Below are positions 6,948 to 64,000 of a DNA stretch of 64,000 nucleotides, in pieces. Every line of letters starts with the position of its first letter. The stretch's first letter is position 1. The DNA lies in NCBI GenBank assembly GCA_977862235.1, contig OZ374558.1:2542001-2606000 (forward strand), written 5' to 3'. Under the pieces are notes generated by a model. It worked only from the letters and a program-made list of their open reading frames with translations, had not been told where the DNA came from and made no database searches. The translations under genes were made by a program, and so were the position numbers. This stretch comes from Dudresnaya verticillata. Taxonomy: Eukaryota.

Positions 6948-6964
6948 AACGGGCGTCTTCGCCT

Positions 6965-9467: not shown

Positions 9468-9485
9468 TTCTAGGTCGGGAGACCA
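9468..9485 (-). promoter_or_regulatory. Primer binding site, tRNA-Tyr-like
   Basis: TGGTCTCCCGACCTAGAA 1 nt after the LTR. Its complement ends G72-A73-CCA, matching the eukaryotic tRNA-Tyr identity C1:G72/A73. Confidence 0.8.
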
Positions 9486-9486
9486 G

Positions 9487-33570: not shown

Positions 33571-33670
33571 CGGCCCCCCCCCTCAAGAGCGAACGTCCCG
33601 GGCGCGGGTTACGAATTACGAAATGGCGTGGCCCGGTTTCCCTCGGTGGAGCGCCGGATGAGCGGGAGCG

Positions 33671-38262: not shown

Positions 38263-38279
38263 AACGGGCGTCTTCGCCT

Positions 38280-40724
38280 TTACCCGTTTTCCGAACTCGA
38301 ACTAGAATCCGAATTGCGAGCGTCCGCGTCCAATGGGGAGGTTGATCGATCACCTCTTCCGTTGTTCGCGGAGTCTTCGTAAGCCTCCGAGGGCAGGTTC
38401 GGGTGACTCGGCTCAATCGCGTCAACGTTTTCACGGACTGCGAGAACCGGTTGACGGCCCGGGGCCTGCGCGTGTCTCGGATTGCGGAGGACTGTCGGCG
38501 GTCCTCGACACTCGAAGCTGACTTGACGCTGGGCTCGGTCCCTCGGGTAGCGCGTATCGCCTTGACGAAGATCTCGGTTTACGCGATTGTCACGTGATCC
38601 TCGGGAGTCTTGTCCACGGTGACCTCGATTGTCAACGGACGCGAACGAATTCCCTCTTGATGCGCCGCGATTCACGAAGTTATTACGCGTATACGGTCTC
38701 GTCTCGAGTTGGTACAAGTAGTTCTGGTACGCGCAATAGAGTTTTTGCTCCTTCGTGAGATACGGACACGAATACATGAGGTGACCGATTTCGCGACAGA
38801 ACCAACACGGCCACGCATCTTGATTCTTCGGTATCATCGAACGCGCCATCTCGATTTGCTCCGGGGTCATCGGGGGGACACGCGCGGGTACGAAACGCTC
38901 GATGCGACTCGTGAGATCTAACGTATCGTCCACGGAGACCGTTGTCGAAGTAGTCGGTGTAGCGGATGTGGACCCGGTTCCTGAACGAATCATCATCACG
39001 GCCATTTGCGGGTCTTCGTTCATCGGGTACTCGTATTCACTCCCGGGAGTGTCGCAAGCTTCGATAAGCATCGTGCGTCCGGGCGCTTGGCGATTCTTCG
39101 GGTACGTAGGAGACACTCGGTTCTTCGAATCACGCGACTGTTGGGCCGCGGTGTCACGTAGTTCGCGAGCTCGGAATGTCGTGCCTTCGGCTTGCGCGAT
39201 TCGTTGCACGCTCATAAAATTCTTCTGCTCGGACAGCGGTAAACGGCGAACCTGGTCGGCCACGATAGGATACGTAGTAGGTAGTAATCCACGAATAAAC
39301 TGGTGCGTTAACGAAGAGTCATCGTAGACACCGGAGCAGACATCCGCGTAGCCTTGCAAACGAGTCGCAAACTCCATCTTGGTTTCATCGGACTTCTGCT
39401 TCGCGGTTATCACGCGATCGTGTGCGTCTGCGATTACGTCTTCCGTGAGAAATCGCTGTAGTAACACGTTCACGATCGCGGACCAGCAAACCGGGTTGCC
39501 CGTACGAACGCCTCCGAAGGCATAGTGTTGATACACCTTGAGCGCGGTCTCATCGAGAAACCACGAAATCGTACGAACTGCTGCTCCTTCGGTGAGCCCG
39601 ACTCCGTTCAGCGCTTGTCGAATATCACGAAGAAATGCGAGAACCTTAATCGGGTCGCGTCCCGTGAACTTCTCGAGTCTCGGCATCATCGAACGCATGC
39701 GTGAAACGGTTTTCGACGTGTTACCTCGGAATACTTCGTGTTGATTATCCCGAGGTGACGAATTCGTGAGTCGATACGATCGATAGCTTACGGCCCGCGC
39801 GAATTCGGGAATGAGCGTCGGTATCGGTTCGACGCCCGGCTCGAGCGGTCCCCAGTGCCAGAACGATGACACGGGTCCCGCGAGCGCTAACGGATTTTCT
39901 GTTACGGGTCCTCCGGGGGACATCGGTGGTTGCAGCGAATCTCGGAATACTGCGGGGTTGATACGGGGGTTGTCGGAGGCATCGGTTGCCTGATTCGATA
40001 AAGCGTGCGGGGACGGATTCGGATATTTCGGTAACGTAGATTGGGCACCCGGGCCTTGCACGGGTTGAACTAGCGGCGAATTGCGGGGGTCAGGACGGGC
40101 TTCGGAATGATCTTCGCGACTTCGAGACTTCGGTAACGCTGCGGACACGATGTCACGAATAGCGTTCAACTGTTCCTCGGAGAATGCGTGCGAGCTGCGA
40201 ACGGGAAGCGAGTGACTCGCCTTGCCCACGGGGGCGGATACGTTGCGCTCGAGCACGAGAAACCGATTGCTGACTCCCGAGACGAGATCCCGGAGACTCT
40301 CGAGTGAGTCTTCGATCCTACGGACCTTGCCAGCGCGGAGATTGTTGAACTCTTCGTGAACTCGATTGTGCGTATTACGAATTGACAACTGCGTGATACG
40401 GTACGCGGTAGAAAGCGCATCGATGACTTCTTCGTATAGTAAACGTAATTCGGAACCGGAGACGTGCTTCATCGAGAAGAGTCGATCGACGGTATCCGAG
40501 GGAACGATTTCCAACGGAGTGTACGTATACGAAAGGTCGGACTGGCTACCGTGAGCCTGCGAACGCGAGTCTGTGCGAAGATCGGGTACCGTTATTCGTG
40601 AAGCGCGAGTGCGAGAAAACGGTTCTCGGTCACTCGCGTTCGAGTCGAACAACGAGAGCTCCGGAATCGGTACGTCATCGGATTTCGGTACCCGCGAATC
40701 GGAACGACTCGGAGCGTGAGACAT
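38280..40724 (-). CDS. gag: A2 gag, 814 aa
   Basis: Intact ATG-initiated ORF downstream of the PBS; CWFCREIGHLMYSC knuckle. Confidence 0.93.
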   Translation of the reverse strand: MSHAPSRSDSRVPKSDDVPIPELSLFDSNASDREPFSRTRASRITVPDLRTDSRSQAHGSQSDLSYTYTPLEIVPSDTVDRLFSMKHVSGSELRLLYEEVIDALSTAYRITQLSIRNTHNRVHEEFNNLRAGKVRRIEDSLESLRDLVSGVSNRFLVLERNVSAPVGKASHSLPVRSSHAFSEEQLNAIRDIVSAALPKSRSREDHSEARPDPRNSPLVQPVQGPGAQSTLPKYPNPSPHALSNQATDASDNPRINPAVFRDSLQPPMSPGGPVTENPLALAGPVSSFWHWGPLEPGVEPIPTLIPEFARAVSYRSYRLTNSSPRDNQHEVFRGNTSKTVSRMRSMMPRLEKFTGRDPIKVLAFLRDIRQALNGVGLTEGAAVRTISWFLDETALKVYQHYAFGGVRTGNPVCWSAIVNVLLQRFLTEDVIADAHDRVITAKQKSDETKMEFATRLQGYADVCSGVYDDSSLTHQFIRGLLPTTYPIVADQVRRLPLSEQKNFMSVQRIAQAEGTTFRARELRDTAAQQSRDSKNRVSPTYPKNRQAPGRTMLIEACDTPGSEYEYPMNEDPQMAVMMIRSGTGSTSATPTTSTTVSVDDTLDLTSRIERFVPARVPPMTPEQIEMARSMIPKNQDAWPCWFCREIGHLMYSCPYLTKEQKLYCAYQNYLYQLETRPYTRNNFVNRGASRGNSFASVDNRGHRGQDSRGSRDNRVNRDLRQGDTRYPRDRAQRQVSFECRGPPTVLRNPRHAQAPGRQPVLAVRENVDAIEPSHPNLPSEAYEDSANNGRGDRSTSPLDADARNSDSSSSSENG

Positions 40725-40795
40725 CGTGTCTCGGATAGAAACGAATTACGAATAAATGCGAAACTTCGGGACCACGTTCTAGGTCGGGAGACCAG

Positions 40796-41646
40796 TGCGG
40801 TATAAGGAAAACGAAGTCCACGGAGACGCGGGGAAGTCTCGCACTGTAAGCGAATGGCCTCGGAGCCTAGCGAATGGCCTCGTAGCCTAACGAAGAAACG
40901 AAAACGGGGTGGTAGCGTGGTAGAGCGGAGCGGCTAACACGAAGGACCACGGTGTCAACGTATTCGTGTGCGGAAGGGAGAACTCGAGCAATCGATCACC
41001 GGGGATGACTCCGGGTGCGCGGGGCTATCGAAAGCGAGGCTCGACCGTATCCGCAGTCACGAAGACGAAGACACCGGACTCGAAGAAACAGCGTTTACCG
41101 AAGACTCCGAGGTCCGGGCGCTAGTCGCTTATCGGAAACCCTCGGAGGTTGTGCCAGACGACTGGCTAAGTACTTCTACGTGAGCACGAATGCGCGTCAA
41201 CTCGGGAGACGGTTGGTACTCGAATGATTCGTAACGGCCTCGGTGCCAGCGAACGGTCGCCTCACGTATGGTGGCGGTTGCGGAGTGCGCCAGCGATGCA
41301 TACGGAGGTGCGCGTGTCTCGTGGGCCGCGGTGCCGTTACGCGCGGGAAACAACGGGAAAGTCACGAAGGTGTCAGCGATTTCGTATCGGGTGCGCACTG
41401 TAATGCGAATGCCATCGTGGCGTGCGCGATCGCGAAGTCGGATCGGGATTCATCCGGAGGTGTCAGCGATTTCGTATCACGTGCGTGCTGTAATGCGTAT
41501 GCCATCGTGGCGCGCGCACCGTATGCATCGCTGTAATACGTTTGCCATCGTGGCGTGCGCATTCACGGAGTCATTTCGAAATTCGTATTTCTCGATTACT
41601 TTCACGGAGGCCACGGAGTCATTACACGAATAGCGTCTATACCACA
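40796..41646 (-). repeat. 5' LTR of A2
   Basis: Adjacent to the PBS; the terminus reads TGCGG instead of TGTGG. Confidence 0.97.
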
Positions 41647-42781: not shown

Positions 42782-43561
42782 ATGTTTGCAGCGAGCAAGC
42801 GCTCCCGGTTTTCTGTTTCTTCAGATTACAAAAAAGACGGTGTTGGTTACGGTAAGAGACATCTTACGACTCGTAGAGCCCATGATGACAAACCTTCCAA
42901 GGAGGAATCTCTTCAAGCTCCCGAAGGGCATCATGGACCCTATCGCTATGTTACGACTGCTAATGACTTAGTAAGTGCTGTTAAGAGGACAGAAGTGTCA
43001 CAAGACGTTTCGAGCCGCCGATATGAAAACTTGTTCGCGCTAAGAAATGTTCGCGGAAGAGAAGATTTTCCGTACTTCCGTCCTTGCTTTTTGGCGTCAC
43101 TATCTGCTGAAGAAGTGGAAAAGCTTTCACTTATAACCCGAAAATCCCTTTCGGGAAAGTTCGCTGACGCTAGAGAAACCGGCAACGAATGGAGCGTTGT
43201 TAGCCACATAAGTTTCGCAGATTTAGAGCCTCTTCTGTCAATATATATCTCAGACATTGCCAAGTTCGTGGGCACCAGAGCTATTCATCTCAACCGTGTC
43301 GTCCGAATGAGCACTAGAATTCAAACTTGGCCAGCGAAAGAGCTAAAGAATTTCAAATCCATGATGAAGACTGACTTGAATTCTTGGAAACTGAAAGGAA
43401 TGATTAGGAAGAAGCGTATTGGCGTTGCTGGAGACCCTTTTATGCGAATCCAACAAGTCTTTGAGAGAGTCAGGAATGAGGTACAGGAGCACAATCTCTC
43501 TGGAATACATGACAAAATTGAGAACGGACTCCGCAACGAGCTTACCCTTAAATATCCGTAA
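42782..43561 (+). CDS. Hypothetical 259-aa protein with a divergent RWP-RK-like domain
   Basis: Open frame from the first ATG; ISFADLEPLLSIYISDIAKFVGTRAIHLNRVVRMSTRIQTWPAKELK follows the RWP-RK spacing pattern. Confidence 0.55.
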   Translation: MFAASKRSRFSVSSDYKKDGVGYGKRHLTTRRAHDDKPSKEESLQAPEGHHGPYRYVTTANDLVSAVKRTEVSQDVSSRRYENLFALRNVRGREDFPYFRPCFLASLSAEEVEKLSLITRKSLSGKFADARETGNEWSVVSHISFADLEPLLSIYISDIAKFVGTRAIHLNRVVRMSTRIQTWPAKELKNFKSMMKTDLNSWKLKGMIRKKRIGVAGDPFMRIQQVFERVRNEVQEHNLSGIHDKIENGLRNELTLKYP

Positions 43562-49225: not shown

Positions 49226-51486
49226 GTGGCGTTTACAGGTTACTTACTCTGAGGGTTGGCGGGTTGTGGTGTGAAGGTTTGGCAAGGATGAGCAACGTGT
49301 GTTGAACAAGCTTTGCTCGGGATCACTTGCGAGGCTCAATCGTGTGGTAAGTCGCTCTCCTCGATAAGGCATCAAAGCCTAAAAGGCGTTCACACTCAAC
49401 TGTGGCACGGCCGCTCTGAGCGCGATACTGTACATAATGTGCCGCTGCATATATTGCACAAACACGACTGTGGAGTGGTTTTCTTCTAGAGCAACAACAT
49501 TTCCCGGTATGCACCGAAAAGTAAATTGAAAAAACGCATTGAATTGTGTTGCAGCACCGGCGGAGTGTTACGAGATTCTGGAGTTTCTGGAGAGCCCTCT
49601 GGATGGCTCTAGATGCCACGTGTAGCCGTCTCTTAGGTCACCTCCAGAAGGCCCACGTCGCGAGTGGCCATGCAATAAGTCTTCCTTCTGCTCCCCACAC
49701 CAATGACCCCGGGCTGTAATTCTTATCTTACAGTATCACTGTAAGAAAGACATTACAGCATTAATAGTAACAGTAATTCTGGCGCCCCACGCGAACAATT
49801 ACATTGCCCACCGCAATTCACCCTCCCCGAATGTAATTGCACGGATTCACCCTGAGCTCCGCCGCTCTCAAACCACAAGCACAACCCGACGCCTCCCAAC
49901 CTCCACGCGCAGCTCGCGTGCACACCGTACCCGGCTCCCCGCCCACCGCCCGGCTCCCGCACCCCTCCCCCGCCCCGCGCCCACAATGAAGAATCGCCGC
50001 GTGCGGCGCAAGTCCACCGCGGACTGCCAAGCCCACAGCTCGCCGCGCGGCCGTGGAGCGCTTGCGCTGCGAGCAACCTGCCGCCTTCTCGCCACTTGAA
50101 CTAACCGCATTCGGGTCAAGCCCCACCTTCTCCCGCCCGCTCACTCGACGCGACAACATTCCCTACTGCCTGCGTCGCGCTCCGCAGCCCGCGCTCCACG
50201 CAAACTGCCTGCTTTGTCGACCGCACGCGCTGCCTGGTCCCGACCCCGAACGCCTGCCAAGCGTGGGCCCGGGCGCCTGGGCATGCGCTGCATTCCGACA
50301 AGCGCCGCCGTCCGCCCCCTCGCCTCGCTGCGTCAGCGTCAAGCGCTGCCGCTCCGCTTCCCCACTGCAACTGCAATGTACTGCAGCAATTCGCCCGCCT
50401 GGTACCGAAGGCGCGCCGGGCATCTCTGGCGTAGGCATGCGACCATTGCATTACCGTCACGTATCCCCTCTTTTACTCACACGGCAACGGATGTCAATTC
50501 AAGTCTGTTCCAAGTATGCTTTGCGCCTTGTGCAGCACTGCGGCTGGCTCGGCCTACGTGCGCATCGTGCGCATCACCATCTCGCCACCCGGCGCGCCTC
50601 CGACGGTCAACACAACCAGGAGAATGCACATCCCCTTCTGCTGCCCGCATGCGTCACGCAAGTGGAGAAGCTACTGGCAGTCCAGGTTGCTACAATCACT
50701 TCAGTTCTGCGGAGTAACGGGGTGCATGTATCGCCCCGTCGCGGCGTAGCGATCAAGAATCACCACGTTGGCTTTGGCGGGAGCGAACAGCCAAGTCTTT
50801 GCATCGGGTGATTTGCACTCTGCGGTGCGCTGAAGCTCAACTGCCCACGTACTGGTCGGCATGCCGATACCGCGCGTACGTCCGTGAATCAACTCACCGT
50901 GGAAGATGCATCAATGCCCGCTGGTTGCACTAGGGACGCGAATGGAGAAGCTACTGACATGCCCAAGTTGCAGCAGAAGTCAGATTTACCGAGGGCGAAT
51001 TGTGCCGGCAGTTGTTCATTTCCCGTCAGGCATCATCTACGTACCTCGGACGAGCACGGCAGGTGAAGTCTTTGTTCCGTCCATGCTGACACGTCAAGTT
51101 ACCACAATCAGGGCATTTCCGCCGAGAGCGACAATGTACAGACAGTCAGGGTTATCAGGCGTCACACCATCACGACGACAAGTGAAGTCTAATGACTTCA
51201 GCTATCCTCGCAACGCATGCACGGGGGCTCATGTGTCGCATGCGCCTCAACCTTCCGACACAGAGTGCTCCGCCTTGAATCGATACAACCGATAATGCAC
51301 ATCATCATCTCCTGCGTGCATCAATGACGCAGAGGGAGAAGCTGCTGACACGCTGTGTCGCTATAGTCAATGCAATTCAGGGTTCTGAGACGGCTCGGCA
51401 CGCGGAACCGACACAACGAGGAATGCACCTACCGAGACCGCAGTCGCCCTCGTCTTGCGATCGAATCGACGCCTCCACGACAATAG

Positions 51487-51493
51487 TATAAAT
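51487..51493 (+). promoter_or_regulatory. TATA box of array copy 1; equivalents at 54556, 57658, 60754 and 63850
   Basis: TATAAAT or TATAAAG about 140 nt before the ATG, conserved between diverged promoters. Confidence 0.7.
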
Positions 51494-51626
51494 ACCCTCC
51501 TCGCCGGCGCTGACAACAACATCTTCCTACATCCTTGAGCAACACGAAGTGACATCATCATCCATACAAGAATCCCGGCAACGCTAATCGCCGTCTCTCT
51601 TACTGCGTTACCCCAGCTAACACGCT

Positions 51627-53483
51627 ATGAGTCGGCGCTTTGCCTGGGCGGTTCTGCCGTTCACACTGGTGCTGCTACTGCAGTTCTTGCAACTAGCCAA
51701 CGCCGGTGATGCGGTCGCCAATGTTGAAGCTGTGCGTGCTGGTGTTCAAGTAGATGTCGGTGCCGGTGGTGGTAAGCCGAACACAAACAAGGAGGCTTCC
51801 GAAAACCCAAATGTGGCTTCCGTCCATCTCCACAACGAGGGAGGCGATGAAGAGCCTGTCGTCGACGAGGGCGATGAGGAAGAAGATGAGCTGGAAGAGA
51901 AGATGATCGGCGACGTGGAACACCTTGAAGAGGATGAGGATGAAGACGTCGAGGACGATGAGGAAGATGAGATCGAGGGTGTGTTGCAAGATGGAGAAGG
52001 CAGTTTAGAAGAAGTTGCCGACCGTGAGGATGACGACGACGAATTGTCTGAAGATTCTGTGGACGAGGAGGACGTTGATGATCTCCTTGATGATGAGAGT
52101 GTGCATAATGACGAGGATACGCTGGCCGAAGAGATCGACACTGGCCTCATGGAAGAGGATAGCGAGGAAGGCGGAGAAGAGAAGCCGGATATTGTGGACG
52201 AATCTTCGAAAGGATGGAGGGGATGGCGCCGAGAGTGCCGGAGGTGCCATTTCTCGTCACAATGCAGGCGCGGTCTGAAGTGCTGGCGTAGGAAATGTGT
52301 GATCAACAATGCGAGGTTAAGGTTGCGTTGCTTCCGAAACCACTGCCAGCGGTGTTCCAGGACGCATCACTGCCGACCCGGGCTCACGTGCCGGTGGGGA
52401 AAGTGTATTGTCAACAAGCCCGGCCATTCGCATCGCTGCTTCCGCCCTCCCCCGCGTCCAAGGAGCTACTATAAGGCTGACTGCGTACGGTGTTCGGCGA
52501 GTAACGAGTGCAGGAGCCGACGTTGTTTCCGGGCCGGAACGAGGTGGGCGCGTTGTGCGAGAGACGTCTGGTGGTACAGAAAGTGCTTTCTGAAGAAGGA
52601 GTGCGCACCGTGCAAGTTGAGCAAGGAGTGTAAGAGTGGAAAGTGCTGGAAAAAGCGTTGTGTGAATGTGAGGAAGGTGCGCGGTAGGAAGATTACGGAT
52701 CCTACTTCACTGCGCAAGTGCTTTGGGCAGGTGGGCAAGTGTGGATTCTGCAAGTCCACGCGGGACTGCAAGGGGAAGCTGGTGTGCAAAGCAGGGACGG
52801 GGCGTTCGAAGCGGGCAAGGTGCGCAGAGCCGATGGGTGAAGGTAAGCGTTGTCATGATCCGTGCTGGGCATGCAAGAGGGGCCTTAGGTGTAATGGGAA
52901 GACATGCGAGCGCCCGCGAGTGCCGTTTTGTGGAAAGTGCCGACGTACTAAGGACTGCTCGTCTGGGATGGTGTGCAAATTCGCGAGGAGGGGTGACCCG
53001 TGGGGACGTTGCGCGAAGCGTATGGATGTCGGTAAGAGCTGTCGTGACCTGTGCTGGGCGTGCAAGGGCGGGCTGTTTTGTAAGAATGGCAAGGTCTGCA
53101 GCAAGCGTGGAGAGAAATGTGCGTGGTGCTCGAAGCACTGGCATTGCAAGCAGGGTCTTCGTTGCAAGAAGAAGCCCGGAGCTAAGGAAGGGAAGTGTGC
53201 GCAGCCGCGGGGCGAGGGGTCTCCTTGCCATGATGACTGCTGGACGTGTAAACACAGGCTGGAGTGCAGGAACGGCAAGGTATGCAAGCCACCGCGCAAG
53301 GGCCAGTGCGGACATTGCAAGGTTGATGACGACTGCAAGGGGAAGCTTGTTTGCAAGGTGAAGGGTAAATTTGGGAAGTGTGCGAAGCCGAACGGTGTTG
53401 GTAAGCCGTGTCGTGATCCGTGCTGGGCGTGTGAGAAACACCTTGTGTGCAACAAGTGGGGCAAGTGTGCGTACCCGTATTAG
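51627..53483 (+). CDS. Secreted acidic/cysteine-rich cationic repeat protein, copy 1
   Basis: Hydrophobic signal peptide (..ANA/GD), D/E tract, 64 Cys in 8 modules; intronless. Confidence 0.92.
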   Translation: MSRRFAWAVLPFTLVLLLQFLQLANAGDAVANVEAVRAGVQVDVGAGGGKPNTNKEASENPNVASVHLHNEGGDEEPVVDEGDEEEDELEEKMIGDVEHLEEDEDEDVEDDEEDEIEGVLQDGEGSLEEVADREDDDDELSEDSVDEEDVDDLLDDESVHNDEDTLAEEIDTGLMEEDSEEGGEEKPDIVDESSKGWRGWRRECRRCHFSSQCRRGLKCWRRKCVINNARLRLRCFRNHCQRCSRTHHCRPGLTCRWGKCIVNKPGHSHRCFRPPPRPRSYYKADCVRCSASNECRSRRCFRAGTRWARCARDVWWYRKCFLKKECAPCKLSKECKSGKCWKKRCVNVRKVRGRKITDPTSLRKCFGQVGKCGFCKSTRDCKGKLVCKAGTGRSKRARCAEPMGEGKRCHDPCWACKRGLRCNGKTCERPRVPFCGKCRRTKDCSSGMVCKFARRGDPWGRCAKRMDVGKSCRDLCWACKGGLFCKNGKVCSKRGEKCAWCSKHWHCKQGLRCKKKPGAKEGKCAQPRGEGSPCHDDCWTCKHRLECRNGKVCKPPRKGQCGHCKVDDDCKGKLVCKVKGKFGKCAKPNGVGKPCRDPCWACEKHLVCNKWGKCAYPY

Positions 53484-53706
53484 GTAATGAATCGGGTTGC
53501 GAGAGATAGGGGAAGGTAATTTGTTTACGAGATGCTTCACTGCTAGGAACCTTGTGTGAGCATGGAGTGAGCGAATCTGATATACCTTGCGCACTATTAG
53601 AAATGAGGGCTACCTGGTCTGTTAGAAGACGGGTTTGAGCAGACATTGCAGCGTTTGCAAACGCCTAGTCTTGATAAAGAAACTTCAGTACGCAGCGTGT
53701 ACGCAG

Positions 53707-53710
<4 letters not shown>

Positions 53711-53740
<30 letters not shown>
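53711..53740. repeat. (GA)15 microsatellite
   Basis: Read directly. Confidence 0.95.
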
Positions 53741-53744
<4 letters not shown>

Positions 53745-54698
53745 AGAGAAAGCGGATCTCGTGTTTTGTCAACGGAGCTCAATTTGTTAAACGGGCAATA
53801 GGCGTTTATGCAGAGGAAAGACTACATTACATACGTGTTAAGCGGAAAGACCGGAGGGTCAACGCGTCGGCACGAATCGGAGCTTCGGGCTGCTCAGTCA
53901 GACTTTGGCCAAATCATTCAATGCAACGTACTGCAACGAAGCACTATGGTGCGCCTGTTCATTTTCGTAAAGTCTCTCGCAAGCTTGTTTTGAGATGAGC
54001 AGTTCCGCTCACCGTAGCTCGCCTCAAAAGTCGATAACGAGCGATCTCGCCCGGAGTCAAGAAGACCAGGGCCAGGAATGAGCATCATCACCCCTGGCGC
54101 ACATGAGCGATGCGAGGAGAGAAGCTGCTGACACGCCAAGTTCCTACAATCAATTTATTTTCGTAAGGGTGCGGTTGTGCGGACAGTCGTTGCATTGCTA
54201 TCAAACATCACCTCTTTACCTCGGCCCACAGCCATAAAGACAAAGGCCGTGCCACCAGTCGTTGTCTCCCAATAGTGCAATGGAGCTGAATTGCACTGCG
54301 TACGCCTCAAGCTCGCTGACACGGATCGCTTCTTAGTGAATCGATGCGACCAGGAATGGCCTTTGCCGCGCCAGCACCGGTCAAAGATGGCACAAATGAG
54401 GACGCTATCGATTCGTCATGTCATGTACAGTCAATGCAATTCAGGGCTGGCTCCGAGGAGGCATCTGGACGCGGAATCGACACGACTTGGAATGCAACTG
54501 CCGGCGCCGCAGTCGCCCTCATCTTGATATCGAAGTGACGCCTCCGCGAGAAGGGTATAAAGACTGGTCCTCTCCGAGCCGTAACCACAACGTCTTCCCC
54601 GCAAGCGCGCAAAGCAACGCGAAGCAATCGCCGCGAAACAAATTCGCAGCAGCTCACCGGCATATTGCTTCTACCTCATCTCGCTGATCTCAAACACG

Positions 54699-56555
54699 AT
54701 GAGTCGGCGCTTTGCCTGGGCGGTTCTGCCGTTCACACTGGTGCTGCTACTGCAGTTCTTGCAACTAGCCAACGCCGGTGATGCGGTCGCCAATGTTGAA
54801 GCTGTGCGTGCTGGTGTTCAAGTAGATGTCGGTGCCGGTGGTGGTAAGCCGAACACAAACAAGGAGGCTTCCGAAAACCCAAATGTGGCTTCCGTCCATC
54901 TCCACAACGAGGGAGGCGATGAAGAGCCTGTCGTCGACGAGGGCGATGAGGAAGAAGATGAGCTGGAAGAGAAGATGATCGGCGACGTGGAACACCTTGA
55001 AGAGGATGAGGATGAAGACGTCGAGGACGATGAGGAAGATGAGATCGAGGGTGTGTTGCAAGATGGAGAAGGCAGTTTAGAAGAAGTTGCCGACCGTGAG
55101 GATGACGACGACGAATTGTCTGAAGATTCTGTGGACGAGGAGGACGTTGATGATCTCCTTGATGATGAGAGTGTGCATAATGACGAGGATACGCTGGCCG
55201 AAGAGATCGACACTGGCCTCATGGAAGAGGATAGCGAGGAAGGCGGAGAAGAGAAGCCGGATATTGTGGACGAATCTTCGAAAGGATGGAGGGGATGGCG
55301 CCGAGAGTGCCGGAGGTGCCATTTCTCGTCACAATGCAGGCGCGGTCTGAAGTGCTGGCGTAGGAAATGTGTGATCAACAATGCGAGGTTAAGGTTGCGT
55401 TGCTTCCGAAACCACTGCCAGCGGTGTTCCAGGACGCATCACTGCCGACCCGGGCTCACGTGCCGGTGGGGAAAGTGTATTGTCAACAAGCCCGGCCATT
55501 CGCATCGCTGCTTCCGCCCTCCCCCGCGTCCAAGGAGCTACTATAAGGCTGACTGCGTACGGTGTTCGGCGAGTAACGAGTGCAGGAGCCGACGTTGTTT
55601 CCGGGCCGGAACGAGGTGGGCGCGTTGTGCGAGAGACGTCTGGTGGTACAGAAAGTGCTTTCTGAAGAAGGAGTGCGCACCGTGCAAGTTGAGCAAGGAG
55701 TGTAAGAGTGGAAAGTGCTGGAAAAAGCGTTGTGTGAATGTGAGGAAGGTGCGCGGTAGGAAGATTACGGATCCTACTTCACTGCGCAAGTGCTTTGGGC
55801 AGGTGGGCAAGTGTGGATTCTGCAAGTCCACGCGGGACTGCAAGGGGAAGCTGGTGTGCAAAGCAGGGACGGGGCGTTCGAAGCGGGCAAGGTGCGCAGA
55901 GCCGATGGGTGAAGGTAAGCGTTGTCATGATCCGTGCTGGGCATGCAAGAGGGGTCTTAGGTGTAATGGGAAGACATGCGAGCGCCCGCGAGTGCCGTTT
56001 TGTGGAAAGTGCCGACGTACTAAGGACTGCTCGTCTGGGATGGTGTGCAAATTCGCGAGGAGGGGTGACCCGTGGGGACGTTGCGCGAAGCGTATGGATG
56101 TCGGTAAGAGCTGTCGTGACCTGTGCTGGGCGTGCAAGGGCGGGCTGTTTTGTAAGAATGGCAAGGTCTGCAGCAAGCGTGGAGAGAAATGTGCGTGGTG
56201 CTCGAAGCACTGGCATTGCAAGCAGGGTCTTCGTTGCAAGAAGAAGCCCGGAGCTAAGGAAGGGAAGTGTGCGCAGCCGCGGGGCGAGGGGTCTCCTTGC
56301 CATGATGACTGCTGGACGTGTAAACACAGGCTGGAGTGCAGGAACGGCAAGGTATGCAAGCCACCGCGCAAGGGCCAGTGCGGACATTGCAAGGTTGATG
56401 ACGACTGCAAGGGGAAGCTTGTTTGCAAGGTGAAGGGTAAATTTGGGAAGTGTGCGAAGCCGAACGGTGTTGGTAAGCCGTGTCGTGATCCGTGCTGGGC
56501 GTGTGAGAAACACCTTGTGTGCAACAAGTGGGGCAAGTGTGCGTACCCGTATTAG
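54699..56555 (+). CDS. Cys-rich secreted protein, copy 2
   Basis: Identical 618-aa translation. Confidence 0.92.
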   Translation: MSRRFAWAVLPFTLVLLLQFLQLANAGDAVANVEAVRAGVQVDVGAGGGKPNTNKEASENPNVASVHLHNEGGDEEPVVDEGDEEEDELEEKMIGDVEHLEEDEDEDVEDDEEDEIEGVLQDGEGSLEEVADREDDDDELSEDSVDEEDVDDLLDDESVHNDEDTLAEEIDTGLMEEDSEEGGEEKPDIVDESSKGWRGWRRECRRCHFSSQCRRGLKCWRRKCVINNARLRLRCFRNHCQRCSRTHHCRPGLTCRWGKCIVNKPGHSHRCFRPPPRPRSYYKADCVRCSASNECRSRRCFRAGTRWARCARDVWWYRKCFLKKECAPCKLSKECKSGKCWKKRCVNVRKVRGRKITDPTSLRKCFGQVGKCGFCKSTRDCKGKLVCKAGTGRSKRARCAEPMGEGKRCHDPCWACKRGLRCNGKTCERPRVPFCGKCRRTKDCSSGMVCKFARRGDPWGRCAKRMDVGKSCRDLCWACKGGLFCKNGKVCSKRGEKCAWCSKHWHCKQGLRCKKKPGAKEGKCAQPRGEGSPCHDDCWTCKHRLECRNGKVCKPPRKGQCGHCKVDDDCKGKLVCKVKGKFGKCAKPNGVGKPCRDPCWACEKHLVCNKWGKCAYPY

Positions 56556-56778
56556 GTAATGAATCGGGTTGCGAGAGATAGGGGAAGGTAATTTGTTTAC
56601 GAGATGCTTCACTGCTAGGAACCTTGTGTGAGCATGGAGTGAGCGAATCTGATATACCTTGCGCACTATTAGAAATGAGGGCTACCTGGTCTGTTAGAAG
56701 ACGGGTTTGAGCAGACATTGCAGCGTTTGCAAACGCCTAGTCTTGATAAAGAAACTTCAGTACGCAGCGTGTACGCAG

Positions 56779-56782
<4 letters not shown>

Positions 56783-56842
<60 letters not shown>
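56783..56842. repeat. (GA)30 microsatellite
   Basis: Read directly; explains the unit period. Confidence 0.95.
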
Positions 56843-56846
<4 letters not shown>

Positions 56847-57800
56847 AGAGAAAGCGGATCTCGTGTTTTGTCAACGGAGCTCAATTTGTTAAACGGGCAA
56901 TAGGCGTTTATGCAGAGGAAAGACTACATTACATACGTGTTAAGCGGAAAGACCGGAGGGTCAACGCGTCGGCACGAATCGGAGCTTCGGGCTGCTCAGT
57001 CAGACTTTGGCCAAATCATTCAATGCAACGTACTGCAACGAAGCACTATGGTGCGCCTGTTCATTTTCGTAAAGTCTCTCGCAAGCTTGTTTTGAGATGA
57101 GCAGTTCCGCTCACCGTAGCTCGCCTCAAAAGTCGATAACGAGCGATCTCGCCCGGAGTCAAGAAGACCAGGGCCAGGAATGAGCATCATCACCCCTGGC
57201 GCACATGAGCGATGCGAGGAGAGAAGCTGCTGACACGCCAAGTTCCTACAATCAATTTATTTTCGTAAGGGTGCGGTTGTGCGGACAGTCGTTGCATTGC
57301 TATCAAACATCACCTCTTTACCTCGGCCCACAGCCATAAAGACAAAGGCCGTGCCACCAGTCGTTGTCTCCCAATAGTGCAATGGAGCTGAATTGCACTG
57401 CGTACGCCTCAAGCTCGCTGACACGGATCGCTTCTTAGTGAATCGATGCGACCAGGAATGGCCTTTGCCGCGCCAGCACCGGTCAAAGATGGCACAAATG
57501 AGGACGCTATCGATTCGTCATGTCATGTACAGTCAATGCAATTCAGGGCTGGCTCCGAGGAGGCATCTGGACGCGGAATCGACACGACTTGGAATGCAAC
57601 TGCCGGCGCCGCAGTCGCCCTCATCTTGATATCGAAGTGACGCCTCCGCGAGAAGGGTATAAAGACTGGTCCTCTCCGAGCCGTAACCACAACGTCTTCC
57701 CCGCAAGCGCGCAAAGCAACGCGAAGCAATCGCCGCGAAACAAATTCGCAGCAGCTCACCGGCATATTGCTTCTACCTCATCTCGCTGATCTCAAACACG

Positions 57801-59657
57801 ATGAGTCGGCGCTTTGCCTGGGCGGTTCTGCCGTTCACACTGGTGCTGCTACTGCAGTTCTTGCAACTAGCCAACGCCGGTGATGCGGTCGCCAATGTTG
57901 AAGCTGTGCGTGCTGGTGTTCAAGTAGATGTCGGTGCCGGTGGTGGTAAGCCGAACACAAACAAGGAGGCTTCCGAAAACCCAAATGTGGCTTCCGTCCA
58001 TCTCCACAACGAGGGAGGCGATGAAGAGCCTGTCGTCGACGAGGGCGATGAGGAAGAAGATGAGCTGGAAGAGAAGATGATCGGCGACGTGGAACACCTT
58101 GAAGAGGATGAGGATGAAGACGTCGAGGACGATGAGGAAGATGAGATCGAGGGTGTGTTGCAAGATGGAGAAGGCAGTTTAGAAGAAGTTGCCGACCGTG
58201 AGGATGACGACGACGAATTGTCTGAAGATTCTGTGGACGAGGAGGACGTTGATGATCTCCTTGATGATGAGAGTGTGCATAATGACGAGGATACGCTGGC
58301 CGAAGAGATCGACACTGGCCTCATGGAAGAGGATAGCGAGGAAGGCGGAGAAGAGAAGCCGGATATTGTGGACGAATCTTCGAAAGGATGGAGGGGATGG
58401 CGCCGAGAGTGCCGGAGGTGCCATTTCTCGTCACAATGCAGGCGCGGTCTGAAGTGCTGGCGTAGGAAATGTGTGATCAACAATGCGAGGTTAAGGTTGC
58501 GTTGCTTCCGAAACCACTGCCAGCGGTGTTCCAGGACGCATCACTGCCGACCCGGGCTCACGTGCCGGTGGGGAAAGTGTATTGTCAACAAGCCCGGCCA
58601 TTCGCATCGCTGCTTCCGCCCTCCCCCGCGTCCAAGGAGCTACTATAAGGCTGACTGCGTACGGTGTTCGGCGAGTAACGAGTGCAGGAGCCGACGTTGT
58701 TTCCGGGCCGGAACGAGGTGGGCGCGTTGTGCGAGAGACGTCTGGTGGTACAGAAAGTGCTTTCTGAAGAAGGAGTGCGCACCGTGCAAGTTGAGCAAGG
58801 AGTGTAAGAGTGGAAAGTGCTGGAAAAAGCGTTGTGTGAATGTGAGGAAGGTGCGCGGTAGGAAGATTACGGATCCTACTTCACTGCGCAAGTGCTTTGG
58901 GCAGGTGGGCAAGTGTGGATTCTGCAAGTCCACGCGGGACTGCAAGGGGAAGCTGGTGTGCAAAGCAGGGACGGGGCGTTCGAAGCGGGCAAGGTGCGCA
59001 GAGCCGATGGGTGAAGGTAAGCGTTGTCATGATCCGTGCTGGGCATGCAAGAGGGGTCTTAGGTGTAATGGGAAGACATGCGAGCGCCCGCGAGTGCCGT
59101 TTTGTGGAAAGTGCCGACGTACTAAGGACTGCTCGTCTGGGATGGTGTGCAAATTCGCGAGGAGGGGTGACCCGTGGGGACGTTGCGCGAAGCGTATGGA
59201 TGTCGGTAAGAGCTGTCGTGACCTGTGCTGGGCGTGCAAGGGCGGGCTGTTTTGTAAGAATGGCAAGGTCTGCAGCAAGCGTGGAGAGAAATGTGCGTGG
59301 TGCTCGAAGCACTGGCATTGCAAGCAGGGTCTTCGTTGCAAGAAGAAGCCCGGAGCTAAGGAAGGGAAGTGTGCGCAGCCGCGGGGCGAGGGGTCTCCTT
59401 GCCATGATGACTGCTGGACGTGTAAACACAGGCTGGAGTGCAGGAACGGCAAGGTATGCAAGCCACCGCGCAAGGGCCAGTGCGGACATTGCAAGGTTGA
59501 TGACGACTGCAAGGGGAAGCTTGTTTGCAAGGTGAAGGGTAAATTTGGGAAGTGTGCGAAGCCGAACGGTGTTGGTAAGCCGTGTCGTGATCCGTGCTGG
59601 GCGTGTGAGAAACACCTTGTGTGCAACAAGTGGGGCAAGTGTGCGTACCCGTATTAG
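57801..59657 (+). CDS. Cys-rich secreted protein, copy 3
   Basis: Identical 618-aa translation. Confidence 0.92.
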   Translation: MSRRFAWAVLPFTLVLLLQFLQLANAGDAVANVEAVRAGVQVDVGAGGGKPNTNKEASENPNVASVHLHNEGGDEEPVVDEGDEEEDELEEKMIGDVEHLEEDEDEDVEDDEEDEIEGVLQDGEGSLEEVADREDDDDELSEDSVDEEDVDDLLDDESVHNDEDTLAEEIDTGLMEEDSEEGGEEKPDIVDESSKGWRGWRRECRRCHFSSQCRRGLKCWRRKCVINNARLRLRCFRNHCQRCSRTHHCRPGLTCRWGKCIVNKPGHSHRCFRPPPRPRSYYKADCVRCSASNECRSRRCFRAGTRWARCARDVWWYRKCFLKKECAPCKLSKECKSGKCWKKRCVNVRKVRGRKITDPTSLRKCFGQVGKCGFCKSTRDCKGKLVCKAGTGRSKRARCAEPMGEGKRCHDPCWACKRGLRCNGKTCERPRVPFCGKCRRTKDCSSGMVCKFARRGDPWGRCAKRMDVGKSCRDLCWACKGGLFCKNGKVCSKRGEKCAWCSKHWHCKQGLRCKKKPGAKEGKCAQPRGEGSPCHDDCWTCKHRLECRNGKVCKPPRKGQCGHCKVDDDCKGKLVCKVKGKFGKCAKPNGVGKPCRDPCWACEKHLVCNKWGKCAYPY

Positions 59658-59880
59658 GTAATGAATCGGGTTGCGAGAGATAGGGGAAGGTAATTTGTTT
59701 ACGAGATGCTTCACTGCTAGGAACCTTGTGTGAGCATGGAGTGAGCGAATCTGATATACCTTGCGCACTATTAGAAATGAGGGCTACCTGGTCTGTTAGA
59801 AGACGGGTTTGAGCAGACATTGCAGCGTTTGCAAACGCCTAGTCTTGATAAAGAAACTTCAGTACGCAGCGTGTACGCAG

Positions 59881-59884
<4 letters not shown>

Positions 59885-59938
<54 letters not shown>
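59885..59938. repeat. (GA)27 microsatellite
   Basis: Read directly. Confidence 0.95.
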
Positions 59939-59942
<4 letters not shown>

Positions 59943-60896
59943 AGAGAAAGCGGATCTCGTGTTTTGTCAACGGAGCTCAATTTGTTAAACGGGCAATAGG
60001 CGTTTATGCAGAGGAAAGACTACATTACATACGTGTTAAGCGGAAAGACCGGAGGGTCAACGCGTCGGCACGAATCGGAGCTTCGGGCTGCTCAGTCAGA
60101 CTTTGGCCAAATCATTCAATGCAACGTACTGCAACGAAGCACTATGGTGCGCCTGTTCATTTTCGTAAAGTCTCTCGCAAGCTTGTTTTGAGATGAGCAG
60201 TTCCGCTCACCGTAGCTCGCCTCAAAAGTCGATAACGAGCGATCTCGCCCGGAGTCAAGAAGACCAGGGCCAGGAATGAGCATCATCACCCCTGGCGCAC
60301 ATGAGCGATGCGAGGAGAGAAGCTGCTGACACGCCAAGTTCCTACAATCAATTTATTTTCGTAAGGGTGCGGTTGTGCGGACAGTCGTTGCATTGCTATC
60401 AAACATCACCTCTTTACCTCGGCCCACAGCCATAAAGACAAAGGCCGTGCCACCAGTCGTTGTCTCCCAATAGTGCAATGGAGCTGAATTGCACTGCGTA
60501 CGCCTCAAGCTCGCTGACACGGATCGCTTCTTAGTGAATCGATGCGACCAGGAATGGCCTTTGCCGCGCCAGCACCGGTCAAAGATGGCACAAATGAGGA
60601 CGCTATCGATTCGTCATGTCATGTACAGTCAATGCAATTCAGGGCTGGCTCCGAGGAGGCATCTGGACGCGGAATCGACACGACTTGGAATGCAACTGCC
60701 GGCGCCGCAGTCGCCCTCATCTTGATATCGAAGTGACGCCTCCGCGAGAAGGGTATAAAGACTGGTCCTCTCCGAGCCGTAACCACAACGTCTTCCCCGC
60801 AAGCGCGCAAAGCAACGCGAAGCAATCGCCGCGAAACAAATTCGCAGCAGCTCACCGGCATATTGCTTCTACCTCATCTCGCTGATCTCAAACACG

Positions 60897-62753
60897 ATGA
60901 GTCGGCGCTTTGCCTGGGCGGTTCTGCCGTTCACACTGGTGCTGCTACTGCAGTTCTTGCAACTAGCCAACGCCGGTGATGCGGTCGCCAATGTTGAAGC
61001 TGTGCGTGCTGGTGTTCAAGTAGATGTCGGTGCCGGTGGTGGTAAGCCGAACACAAACAAGGAGGCTTCCGAAAACCCAAATGTGGCTTCCGTCCATCTC
61101 CACAACGAGGGAGGCGATGAAGAGCCTGTCGTCGACGAGGGCGATGAGGAAGAAGATGAGCTGGAAGAGAAGATGATCGGCGACGTGGAACACCTTGAAG
61201 AGGATGAGGATGAAGACGTCGAGGACGATGAGGAAGATGAGATCGAGGGTGTGTTGCAAGATGGAGAAGGCAGTTTAGAAGAAGTTGCCGACCGTGAGGA
61301 TGACGACGACGAATTGTCTGAAGATTCTGTGGACGAGGAGGACGTTGATGATCTCCTTGATGATGAGAGTGTGCATAATGACGAGGATACGCTGGCCGAA
61401 GAGATCGACACTGGCCTCATGGAAGAGGATAGCGAGGAAGGCGGAGAAGAGAAGCCGGATATTGTGGACGAATCTTCGAAAGGATGGAGGGGATGGCGCC
61501 GAGAGTGCCGGAGGTGCCATTTCTCGTCACAATGCAGGCGCGGTCTGAAGTGCTGGCGTAGGAAATGTGTGATCAACAATGCGAGGTTAAGGTTGCGTTG
61601 CTTCCGAAACCACTGCCAGCGGTGTTCCAGGACGCATCACTGCCGACCCGGGCTCACGTGCCGGTGGGGAAAGTGTATTGTCAACAAGCCCGGCCATTCG
61701 CATCGCTGCTTCCGCCCTCCCCCGCGTCCAAGGAGCTACTATAAGGCTGACTGCGTACGGTGTTCGGCGAGTAACGAGTGCAGGAGCCGACGTTGTTTCC
61801 GGGCCGGAACGAGGTGGGCGCGTTGTGCGAGAGACGTCTGGTGGTACAGAAAGTGCTTTCTGAAGAAGGAGTGCGCACCGTGCAAGTTGAGCAAGGAGTG
61901 TAAGAGTGGAAAGTGCTGGAAAAAGCGTTGTGTGAATGTGAGGAAGGTGCGCGGTAGGAAGATTACGGATCCTACTTCACTGCGCAAGTGCTTTGGGCAG
62001 GTGGGCAAGTGTGGATTCTGCAAGTCCACGCGGGACTGCAAGGGGAAGCTGGTGTGCAAAGCAGGGACGGGGCGTTCGAAGCGGGCAAGGTGCGCAGAGC
62101 CGATGGGTGAAGGTAAGCGTTGTCATGATCCGTGCTGGGCATGCAAGAGGGGTCTTAGGTGTAATGGGAAGACATGCGAGCGCCCGCGAGTGCCGTTTTG
62201 TGGAAAGTGCCGACGTACTAAGGACTGCTCGTCTGGGATGGTGTGCAAATTCGCGAGGAGGGGTGACCCGTGGGGACGTTGCGCGAAGCGTATGGATGTC
62301 GGTAAGAGCTGTCGTGACCTGTGCTGGGCGTGCAAGGGCGGGCTGTTTTGTAAGAATGGCAAGGTCTGCAGCAAGCGTGGAGAGAAATGTGCGTGGTGCT
62401 CGAAGCACTGGCATTGCAAGCAGGGTCTTCGTTGCAAGAAGAAGCCCGGAGCTAAGGAAGGGAAGTGTGCGCAGCCGCGGGGCGAGGGGTCTCCTTGCCA
62501 TGATGACTGCTGGACGTGTAAACACAGGCTGGAGTGCAGGAACGGCAAGGTATGCAAGCCACCGCGCAAGGGCCAGTGCGGACATTGCAAGGTTGATGAC
62601 GACTGCAAGGGGAAGCTTGTTTGCAAGGTGAAGGGTAAATTTGGGAAGTGTGCGAAGCCGAACGGTGTTGGTAAGCCGTGTCGTGATCCGTGCTGGGCGT
62701 GTGAGAAACACCTTGTGTGCAACAAGTGGGGCAAGTGTGCGTACCCGTATTAG
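60897..62753 (+). CDS. Cys-rich secreted protein, copy 4
   Basis: Identical 618-aa translation. Confidence 0.92.
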   Translation: MSRRFAWAVLPFTLVLLLQFLQLANAGDAVANVEAVRAGVQVDVGAGGGKPNTNKEASENPNVASVHLHNEGGDEEPVVDEGDEEEDELEEKMIGDVEHLEEDEDEDVEDDEEDEIEGVLQDGEGSLEEVADREDDDDELSEDSVDEEDVDDLLDDESVHNDEDTLAEEIDTGLMEEDSEEGGEEKPDIVDESSKGWRGWRRECRRCHFSSQCRRGLKCWRRKCVINNARLRLRCFRNHCQRCSRTHHCRPGLTCRWGKCIVNKPGHSHRCFRPPPRPRSYYKADCVRCSASNECRSRRCFRAGTRWARCARDVWWYRKCFLKKECAPCKLSKECKSGKCWKKRCVNVRKVRGRKITDPTSLRKCFGQVGKCGFCKSTRDCKGKLVCKAGTGRSKRARCAEPMGEGKRCHDPCWACKRGLRCNGKTCERPRVPFCGKCRRTKDCSSGMVCKFARRGDPWGRCAKRMDVGKSCRDLCWACKGGLFCKNGKVCSKRGEKCAWCSKHWHCKQGLRCKKKPGAKEGKCAQPRGEGSPCHDDCWTCKHRLECRNGKVCKPPRKGQCGHCKVDDDCKGKLVCKVKGKFGKCAKPNGVGKPCRDPCWACEKHLVCNKWGKCAYPY

Positions 62754-62976
62754 GTAATGAATCGGGTTGCGAGAGATAGGGGAAGGTAATTTGTTTACGA
62801 GATGCTTCACTGCTAGGAACCTTGTGTGAGCATGGAGTGAGCGAATCTGATATACCTTGCGCACTATTAGAAATGAGGGCTACCTGGTCTGTTAGAAGAC
62901 GGGTTTGAGCAGACATTGCAGCGTTTGCAAACGCCTAGTCTTGATAAAGAAACTTCAGTACGCAGCGTGTACGCAG

Positions 62977-62980
<4 letters not shown>

Positions 62981-63034
<54 letters not shown>
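62981..63034. repeat. (GA)27 microsatellite
   Basis: Read directly. Confidence 0.95.
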
Positions 63035-63038
<4 letters not shown>

Positions 63039-63985
63039 AGAGAAAGCGGATCTCGTGTTTTGTCAACGGAGCTCAATTTGTTAAACGGGCAATAGGCGTT
63101 TATGCAGAGGAAAGACTACATTACATACGTGTTAAGCGGAAAGACCGGAGGGTCAACGCGTCGGCACGAATCGGAGCTTCGGGCTGCTCAGTCAGACTTT
63201 GGCCAAATCATTCAATGCAACGTACTGCAACGAAGCACTATGGTGCGCCTGTTCATTTTCGTAAAGTCTCTCGCAAGCTTGTTTTGAGATGAGCAGTTCC
63301 GCTCACCGTAGCTCGCCTCAAAAGTCGATAACGAGCGATCTCGCCCGGAGTCAAGAAGACCAGGGCCAGGAATGAGCATCATCACCCCTGGCGCACATGA
63401 GCGATGCGAGGAGAGAAGCTGCTGACACGCCAAGTTCCTACAATCAATTTATTTTCGTAAGGGTGCGGTTGTGCGGACAGTCGTTGCATTGCTATCAAAC
63501 ATCACCTCTTTACCTCGGCCCACAGCCATAAAGACAAAGGCCGTGCCACCAGTCGTTGTCTCCCAATAGTGCAATGGAGCTGAATTGCACTGCGTACGCC
63601 TCAAGCTCGCTGACACGGATCGCTTCTTAGTGAATCGATGCGACCAGGAATGGCCTTTGCCGCGCCAGCACCGGTCAAAGATGGCACAAATGAGGACGCT
63701 ATCGATTCGTCATGTCATGTACAGTCAATGCAATTCAGGGCTGGCTCCGAGGAGGCATCTGGACGCGGAATCGACACGACTTGGAATGCAACTGCCGGCG
63801 CCGCAGTCGCCCTCATCTTGATATCGAAGTGACGCCTCCGCGAGAAGGGTATAAAGACTGGTCCTCTCCGAGCCGTAACCACAACGTCTTCCCCGCAAGC
63901 GCGCAAAGCAACGCGAAGCAATCGCCGCGAAACAAATTCGCAGCAGCTCACCGGCATATTGCTTCTACCTCATCTCGCTGATCTC

Positions 63986-64000
63986 ATGATGAGTCGGCGC
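63986..64000 (+). CDS. Start of copy 5 (partial)
   Basis: ATG ATG AGT CGG CGC follows the same promoter as copies 2-4. Confidence 0.8.

Follow-up and report, generated by a model that had tools for sequence, protein, structure and literature searches.

The 64,000-nucleotide stretch analyzed here (the window) is from the genome of the red alga Dudresnaya verticillata (assembly GCA_977862235.1, contig OZ374558.1, positions 2,542,001 to 2,606,000 of the forward strand). It contains a tandem array of four intronless open reading frames (ORFs) of 618 codons on the + strand, starting at 51627, 54699, 57801 and 60897. The four translations are identical, and a synonymous change in copy 1, at position 1257 of the coding sequence, is the only coding difference. 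The encoded protein contains an acidic tract followed by a cationic region with 64 cysteines, and is predicted to be secreted. The array has the following components:

50623..51371, + strand: several copies of a degenerate non-coding element of ~78 nt (repeat families D2, D6 and D8); one further copy is in the first spacer at 54077-54154
51362..51626, + strand: promoter A, an old paralogue of the spacer promoter, with a TATA-like box at 51487
51627..53483, + strand: gene copy 1, intronless ORF of 618 aa, promoter A upstream
53484..54698, + strand: spacer 1, with the 3' flank, (AG)15 at 53710 and promoter B, TATA-like box at 54556
54699..56555, + strand: gene copy 2, same protein, promoter B upstream
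56556..57800, + strand: spacer 2, (AG)30 at 56782, TATA-like box at 57658
57801..59657, + strand: gene copy 3, same protein
59658..60896, + strand: spacer 3, (AG)27 at 59884, TATA-like box at 60754
60897..62753, + strand: gene copy 4, same protein
62754..63988, + strand: spacer 4, (AG)27 at 62980, TATA-like box at 63850, final bases altered
63989..64000, + strand: start of a fifth gene, whose first four codons match; 12 bases are inside the window

Four gene copies behind two promoters

The units measure 3072, 3102, 3096 and 3092 bp from ATG to ATG, and each can be distinguished from the others. They differ by one single-nucleotide polymorphism (SNP), by the length of the (AG)n run (15, 30, 27 and 27 pure repeats) and in the final bases ahead of the fifth start. 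The substitution level is 1 in about 3,000 bases. This is below the divergence between the long terminal repeats (LTRs) of both neighboring retrotransposons (2/853 and 7/851), suggesting that the copying or homogenization of the array is likely younger than both insertions.

Whether the array is an assembly artefact, with the gene itself being real, is a question separate from function. The units are 99.9% identical and most of the differences are located in the error-prone (AG)n run, as an artefact would have it. However, four different unit lengths are found, a SNP and an old promoter are seen in copy 1 alone, and the fifth junction is distinct. Arrays of this type are usually collapsed by assemblers and seldom inflated. 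An artefact is therefore considered unlikely.

The identity between copy 1 and the other copies starts at the start codon, and the region upstream is diverged. Promoter A and the spacer promoter are nevertheless related. They are identical at 189 of 258 aligned bases (73%), with a local alignment score of 138 compared to a maximum of 32 in 200 shuffles, and both promoters A and B contain the TATA-like box ~140 bases 5' of the start. Copies of the ~78-nt element retain 69-71% identity; it is a candidate cis-regulatory element common to both old promoters. A six-base junction is common to copies 1-4 and is missing at the fifth start, where two consecutive in-frame ATG codons are found (63983-64000). 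The fifth start may be the opening of a diverged paralogue.

Because copy 1 follows an old paralogous promoter, a recent unequal crossover at the start codon is the likely origin of the four copies. In the simplest model, two old tandem paralogues, A and B, would have been present, and crossover at their common start would have multiplied a unit of gene A, spacer and promoter B. The model predicts that the last gene is the diverged gene B. The array may thus represent a promoter swap, beyond mere extra dosage. The original prediction, made from the letters of the window, described four identically translated copies that were recently amplified for dosage. Our analysis agrees with the identity and the recent amplification. 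A gain in dosage is a candidate explanation only, and the promoter of copies 2-4 differs from that of copy 1. The array is a young and clean case in which an identical coding sequence lies behind two long-diverged promoters, so that both dosage and promoter swap are open to direct testing.

Protein architecture, homologues and predicted fold

The gene product is divided into four regions:

51627..51704, + strand: predicted signal peptide, residues 1-26, from the sole hydrophobic segment and an A-x-A site
51843..52205, + strand: acidic low-complexity tract, residues 73-193, 68 Asp/Glu in 121 residues, net charge -65
52236..52724, + strand: four Arg-rich 6-Cys modules, residues 204-366, each ending in Cys-Phe; residues 194-368 have a net charge of +46
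52731..53480, + strand: four 10-Cys modules of 61-63 residues, residues 369-618, net charge +45, with a predicted colipase/Dickkopf-type two-hairpin fold

The N-terminus is the only hydrophobic segment (KD15 2.13, compared to values of at most 0.52 past residue 45), and the A-x-A site follows residue 26. No membrane anchor is found in the hydropathy profile. Residues 194-618 contain 118 Lys/Arg, 16 Trp and all 64 Cys, with a net charge of +91. The isoelectric point (pI) is 4.05 for residues 27-193 and 9.98 for residues 194-618, the 49 kDa Cys region. When the tract is set against the Cys region, a net charge of +23 is left. The 6-Cys groups span residues 204-235, 240-271, 286-320 and 326-365, with a Phe directly after the last Cys of each. 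The 10-Cys groups span residues 372-427, 435-491, 498-553 and 561-614. The linkers between modules are 4-14 residues long (mostly 6-7 between 10-Cys modules) and basic, with a net charge of 0 to +4 and at most one acidic residue.

Word-seeded Logan searches returned three homologues of the window protein (P0001). Two of them came from a search with the single protein (339-1082 aa, 521 candidates) and the third from a search with a 3-sequence profile (1090-3110 aa, 1543 candidates). P0002 (544 aa) is 49% identical to P0001 over the Cys region and has all 64 Cys in the identical plan of four 6-Cys and four 10-Cys modules. Its N-terminal tract is also acidic, and is unrelated in sequence to the P0001 tract. 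The separation into an anionic and a cationic block after the signal peptide in P0001 is kept in P0002, as is the 6-Cys block rich in Arg and aromatic residues. The first and last 10-Cys modules of the two proteins pair with each other (55% and 48% non-Cys identity), with a support of 97/88 for the first pair. P0003 contains a basic tract rich in Lys, Asn and Ser, followed by eight 10-Cys modules. P0004 (1515 aa, 241 Cys) has a signal peptide and 23 regex-matched 10-Cys modules without a tract. Neither P0002 nor P0003 has a signal peptide, and both are probably incomplete at the N-terminus. In P0004, module charge changes from +17 close to the N-terminus to -6 in the central part of the protein, and a group of four neighboring modules arose by recent internal expansion (support 100/99).

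Two observations mark the gene as genuine, conserved coding sequence and argue against a chance layout: P0002 keeps the 64 Cys in the 4x6 + 4x10 plan, and among the four internal modules the proportion of nonsynonymous differences is below that of synonymous differences (pN < pS) in six of six pairs. The ten Cys are invariant in 39 modules, with a spacing of 2-5-5-(8-11)-9-3-2-5-(4-5). Non-Cys identity among the P0001 modules is 26-46%. The module tree, from which one regex match across two 6-Cys modules was excluded, is mostly unresolved, with 3 of 36 inner branches starred. A C-W-x-C motif is present in all four P0001 modules, three of four in P0002 and 5 of 23 in P0004. In a shuffle test of 6-Cys modules 1 and 2, module 2 resembles the first half of the 10-Cys modules in the homologues more closely than Cys spacing explains (0/5000 shuffles), suggesting that the 6-Cys modules are likely 10-Cys modules cut short after their first half. 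The test gave p 0.15 for module 1 (0.04 in P0002).

Across the four known members, the two strongly basic Cys regions (+21 and +24 per 100 residues) occur together with acidic tracts, and the two mild members (+7) are without an acidic tract. Only two of the four carry such a tract, which is therefore optional within the family. The family is defined by the 10-Cys module, and proteins with the charge-split layout form one old branch within it.

Structural models suggested a fold for the 10-Cys module. In the AlphaFold2 model of the four 10-Cys modules, the predicted local distance difference test (pLDDT) score is mostly 79-89 per ten-residue block, and no fixed arrangement between modules is predicted (predicted TM score 0.27). 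The model of a single module (pLDDT 82) contains two hairpins and no helix of four or more residues. Foldseek ranked cysteine-rich domain 2 (CRD2) of Dkk1 first (probability 0.99, TM 0.51, E 0.022), followed by Draxin, MIT1, colipase and Dkk4 CRD1. Dkk1 CRD2 is also the best VIA match in both models, with Z 5.2 (57 residues aligned, root-mean-square deviation 3.5) and Z 6.3 (59 aligned, 3.2). The next VIA matches are colipase (Z 4.1 and 4.8) and Dkk4 CRD1 (Z 4.1 and 4.2), and the fungal protease inhibitor AmFPI-1 is a further neighbor (Z 3.7). The module halves each align to knottin or disulfide-directed hairpin (DDH) peptides, and the whole module aligns to Dkk1 CRD2, colipase and Dkk4 CRD1. 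As the ranking is consistent and compatible with the Cys spacing, the 10-Cys module is predicted, with modest scores, to be a colipase/Dickkopf-type pair of DDHs. Against viral models, Foldseek found weak matches to Cys-rich proteins of giant viruses, none with E of 0.001 or below, which suggests that the fold is widespread.

Two head-to-tail DDH motifs form the colipase fold, as described in PMC6832493. Between Dkk CRD1 and CRD2, four of the five disulfide bonds are common and the fifth shifts, according to PMC6078440. None of the 10-Cys modules here contains an adjacent Cys pair, and the tenth Cys is provided by an N-terminal CxxC. This suggests that the fifth bond is placed in a third way here, as C1-C7.

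The family appears to be undescribed. No Pfam or NCBIfam family was found at the curated cut-off for the window protein, its modules or the homologues. The best Pfam match is that of P0003 to Dickkopf_N (PF04706), with 20.2 bits and E 7.6e-4, below the cut-off of 25 bits. Window module 4 matches DUF7107 (PF23416; cut-off 24.6 bits) with E 0.042, and all window modules score at most 14.6 bits. Whole P0001 and whole P0004 have no Pfam match. NCBIfam gave one compositional match (E 0.34), Rfam gave none, and the best E value in PDB sequence searches was 0.04. Pattern scans confirmed no relatives in JGI metagenomes (0/170 and 0/155 stretches), IMG/VR (0/14) or GTDB genomes (0/58). Language-model neighbors in the ESM Atlas score at most 0.85 and are leads only; they are clusters of two-disulfide tandem modules, some of them myxobacterial, and modules of this type are widespread in secreted proteins. 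Hypnea lectins, also Cys-rich and red-algal, are at most candidate relatives, as the review PMC11766507 offered neither sequence nor Cys pattern for comparison. No account of the family was found in the open-licence literature, with the Chondrus cuticle preprint counted without its supplementary list of proteins.

Possible functions of the protein

The charge distribution and the module arrays suggest that the protein may be a secreted, polycationic binder of anionic wall polysaccharide, masked by the acidic tract until secretion. We favor this reading tentatively, at somewhat less than an even chance. All 64 Cys would pair in the endoplasmic reticulum, with C2-C4, C3-C5, C6-C9 and C8-C10 bonds in each 10-Cys module, on the pattern of Dkk and colipase, and a C1-C7 bond that involves the N-terminal CxxC. 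The disordered -65 tract would wrap the +91 region, chiefly the adjacent Arg-rich 6-Cys block (+46), reducing the net charge to +23. This masking would prevent precipitation with anionic glycans or membranes during transit. Outside the cell, cleavage would remove the tract or denser polyanions would displace it, leaving the multivalent rod to cross-link or coat the matrix. The Cys region likely stays one intact rod, because its linkers are short and basic without acidic spacers and because the 23-module homologue resembles a structural matrix protein.

In addition to the intact rod, three known proteins support this reading. Dkk2 CRD2 binds heparin via basic patches (PMC5425732). LCP, a cuticle protein of Chondrus crispus with a pI of 11.7, binds carrageenan electrostatically (bioRxiv 10.64898/2026.01.12.698930). 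In proMBP, an acidic N-terminal piece is proposed to mask the cationic protein in transit (PMC2189086).

The same order of signal, acidic piece (pI 4.05) and Arg-rich, Cys-bearing piece as in proMBP also fits a defense precursor of the proMBP or pro-defensin type. One cut would free the whole cationic Cys region (49 kDa, pI 10) to damage or agglutinate microbes or epiphytes, the acidic tract would be an inhibitory propiece, and copy number would rise under biotic pressure. The conserved Arg/aromatic-rich 6-Cys block in P0002, the young tandem array within a transposon-rich region and the structural neighbor AmFPI-1 are in line with such a role. An R-x-x-R motif is located immediately before the first Cys in both P0001 (at 198 and 202) and P0002 (at 118). 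However, with 12 occurrences in P0001 and 10 in P0002 the motif is frequent throughout both proteins, and this boundary site is not distinctive. The 10-Cys modules contain few aromatic residues (2-4 each), and two homologues have near-neutral modules, in up to 23 repeats, which suits a structural protein better. We regard a defense precursor as a real rival, though a less probable one. Another possibility, in line with the lack of a distinctive cleavage motif, is that the acidic tract is retained. The protein would then be an intact block polyampholyte, acting either as a self-coacervating adhesive or as a Ca2+-binding mineral template with the basic modules as wall anchor. Its charge is blocky within one chain (-65, then +91), and the orthologue's tract is acidic without sequence conservation, as if only charge counts. 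Tyr-rich or Ser-rich blocks, as in some known adhesives, are lacking here. In addition, the P0003 tract is basic and P0004 has none, indicating that the family can do without the polyanion. We find an intact polyampholyte unlikely.

Two further explanations place function in the individual modules. As ligands or inhibitors, they would bind a receptor or enzyme, and charge would be secondary. Dkk, prokineticin, colipase and AmFPI-1 are the nearest solved folds, C-W-x-C is kept in 4/4 P0001 and 3/4 P0002 modules, and the first and last modules are positionally orthologous. However, non-Cys identity within P0001 is low, C-W-x-C is present in few of the P0004 modules, and an array of many modules is better suited to avid binding of a repetitive polymer. 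A protein-binding role is thus improbable. A polyprotein, from which every module is excised as a 3-7 kDa defense peptide, is the least probable of these explanations. Each module has an even number of Cys and could fold alone (pLDDT 82), and dibasic pairs are present in some linkers. These pairs are limited to three of the seven P0001 linkers, one of them matching a position in P0002. The linkers are short and basic, which makes excision unlikely; they include no acidic spacers like the 16-35-residue ones of the Ib-AMP precursor (PMC10136942). Among the structural matches listed for the 10-Cys models, neither a thionin nor a defensin fold appears.

These results bear on the original prediction, which laid out a signal-like N-terminus, an acidic tract, four 6-Cys modules ending in CF and four 10-Cys modules with 64 Cys in all. 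This layout is accurate (the tract is 121 residues long), and the protein is unrecognized as proposed: no curated family matches at cut-off, and its homologues are unnamed. The prediction saw a precursor for defense peptides, a wall-polysaccharide binder or an adhesive. The wall-polysaccharide option is the better supported, and the acidic-plus-cationic design is conserved in the orthologue. The comparison to thionin or defensin precursors of separate peptides is not supported, given the predicted colipase/Dickkopf-like fold and the basic linkers of 4-14 residues, and the suggested cleavage site (ESSK/GWRGWRR) is not distinctive among 12 R-x-x-R motifs.

Several points weigh against the wall-polysaccharide reading and the structural and evolutionary arguments joined to it. 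The tract neutralizes the Cys region incompletely, with +23 remaining. Structural and defense roles are inseparable from sequence alone, because such a polycation binds microbial surfaces too; the two roles are not mutually exclusive. The charge correlation covers four proteins only, two of them probably N-terminally incomplete. No Foldseek E value reaches 0.001, and VIA Z values below 8 may reflect only a common arrangement. Fold likeness says nothing on function. The 6-Cys region is poorly modeled (model residues 64-124, pLDDT < 50), and the disulfide pairs are derived from Cys spacing. For the array, the fit of the chimeric junction is inexact, leaving two bases unexplained, and the fifth gene is seen over 12 bases only.

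A wider reading would join the protein and its array. The protein would be the first member of an undescribed red-algal extracellular family of colipase/Dickkopf-like modules, with charge tuned gene by gene. It would be a self-masking polyampholyte that swaps its acidic tract for sulfated galactans, becoming a wall cross-linker, glue or antimicrobial coat that is hardened by disulfides. The very recent crossover at the start codon would have put the coding sequence under the promoter of a paralogue and multiplied it, altering the site and the amount of production at once. It is doubtful that all of this holds together.

Structural proteins of the red-algal wall and cuticle are only now being identified, and the first major ones are named in the 2026 Chondrus cuticle preprint. 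If the wall-polysaccharide reading is true, the protein would be a new candidate for cross-linking or defense of sulfated galactan matrices, and would exemplify multivalent polycations that are stapled by disulfides and carry their own acidic mask. Tandem colipase/Dickkopf-type modules would also be extended to the red-algal lineage. If the protein merely adds another Cys-repeat family, its interest would be moderate.

Genomic surroundings and comparison with known systems

The rest of the window consists mostly of LTR retrotransposons with reverse transcriptase (RT), RNase H, integrase and chromodomains, and its GC content is near 55%. The long intronless gene with its intronless homologues, this GC content, the LTR-rich setting and the RT motifs are in keeping with a red-algal genome. 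The following features are found:

146-10339 and 32720-41646: two copies of a chromodomain Ty3/Gypsy element, 98.8% alike over 7.3 kb
1072-1566: 170-bp tandem repeat, 2.9 copies with 97% matches, just within the first LTR element
10898-11464, - strand: fragment of a piggyBac-type transposase (DDE_Tnp_1_7, E 9e-7)
11285-12120 and 15069-15906: two inverted repeats, each about 840 bp and 92.8% identical to the other, on either side of a 408-aa ORF (13680-14906, - strand)
28656-32536, - strand: LTR element of a second family, unrelated to the first, with a chromo/chromo-shadow-like C-terminus besides RT and RNase H
42782-43561, + strand: 259-aa ORF in an AT-richer stretch, no Pfam match

Both Ty3/Gypsy copies are complete, with paired LTRs (2/853 and 7/851 differences) and 5-base target-site duplications, and by these features are young insertions. 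The copy at 32720-41646 appears to be inserted into the second LTR element, and 198-bp repeats are located at 28367 and 42479 (97.5%). The closest relatives of the retrotransposon RTs are up to 80% identical, and the named ones are animal proteins (43-45%). The inverted repeat pair is possibly an inverted-LTR (DIRS-like) or other element; the 408-aa ORF in it has no Pfam match.

Among known systems, proteins with the colipase fold were the top structural matches in all four PDB structure searches. These include Dkk CRD1 and CRD2 (3S2K, 5O57), colipase (1ETH), MIT1/Bv8 (1IMT, 2KRA) and the Draxin C domain (5Z5K). Like the window module, they have ten Cys in ~60 residues and two small β-hairpin subdomains, and the heparin-binding Dkk2 CRD2 has a similarly basic surface. 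In colipase, prokineticin and Dkk CRD2, C3 and C4 are adjacent. The window module is without adjacent Cys, has the N-terminal CxxC and shorter loops, and its fifth bond is likely located elsewhere than the C3-C7 bond given for these three in PMC6832493. The modules of the window family also occur in arrays of 4 to 23, plus half-modules. Compared to prokineticin and Dkk, the window protein has neither the AVIT start nor the two-CRD layout. Pfam Dickkopf_N, DUF7107 and EB (PF01683) are two-disulfide tandem modules of extracellular proteins with weak profile matches. The window modules differ from them in the Cys spacing of the second half, in their extreme cationic charge and in the accompanying acidic tract.

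Several precursors combine acidic and cationic parts. Eosinophil proMBP contains a signal, an acidic N-terminal piece (pI about 4) and an Arg-rich, Cys-containing piece (PMC2189086). It is not homologous to the window protein, in which the cationic part consists of eight modules of 49 kDa in total, +23 is left unneutralized and cleavage is only putative. Pro-defensins and spider-toxin precursors have acidic propeptides (PMC6832493), whereas no Glu-containing processing quadruplet precedes the first window module. A defensin precursor gives a single small mature peptide, in contrast to the eight modules here. In thionin and Ib-AMP precursors, acidic and basic Cys-rich parts are in one secreted chain (PMC10136942). 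Unlike the window tract, which is N-terminal and followed by eight modules, the acidic domain of thionin precursors lies at the C-terminus, and mature thionins have a helical fold. Neither a thionin nor a CS-alpha-beta fold is among the structural matches listed for the 10-Cys models. Ib-AMP precursors have acidic inter-module spacers, and the window protein has none. By the features compared, the window protein is outside the colipase, prokineticin, Dkk, thionin and multipeptide-precursor families.

In a red-algal host, Chondrus crispus LCP is a functional analogue, being secreted, very basic and carrageenan-binding. It is a single VWA domain without homology to the window protein, and the part of the preprint that describes it reports neither a Cys-module array nor an acidic tract. 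The fold and the charge-masking design are thus known already from other systems. The family itself appears to be undescribed, and the contrast of two promoters within one array is the new point that lends itself best to testing.

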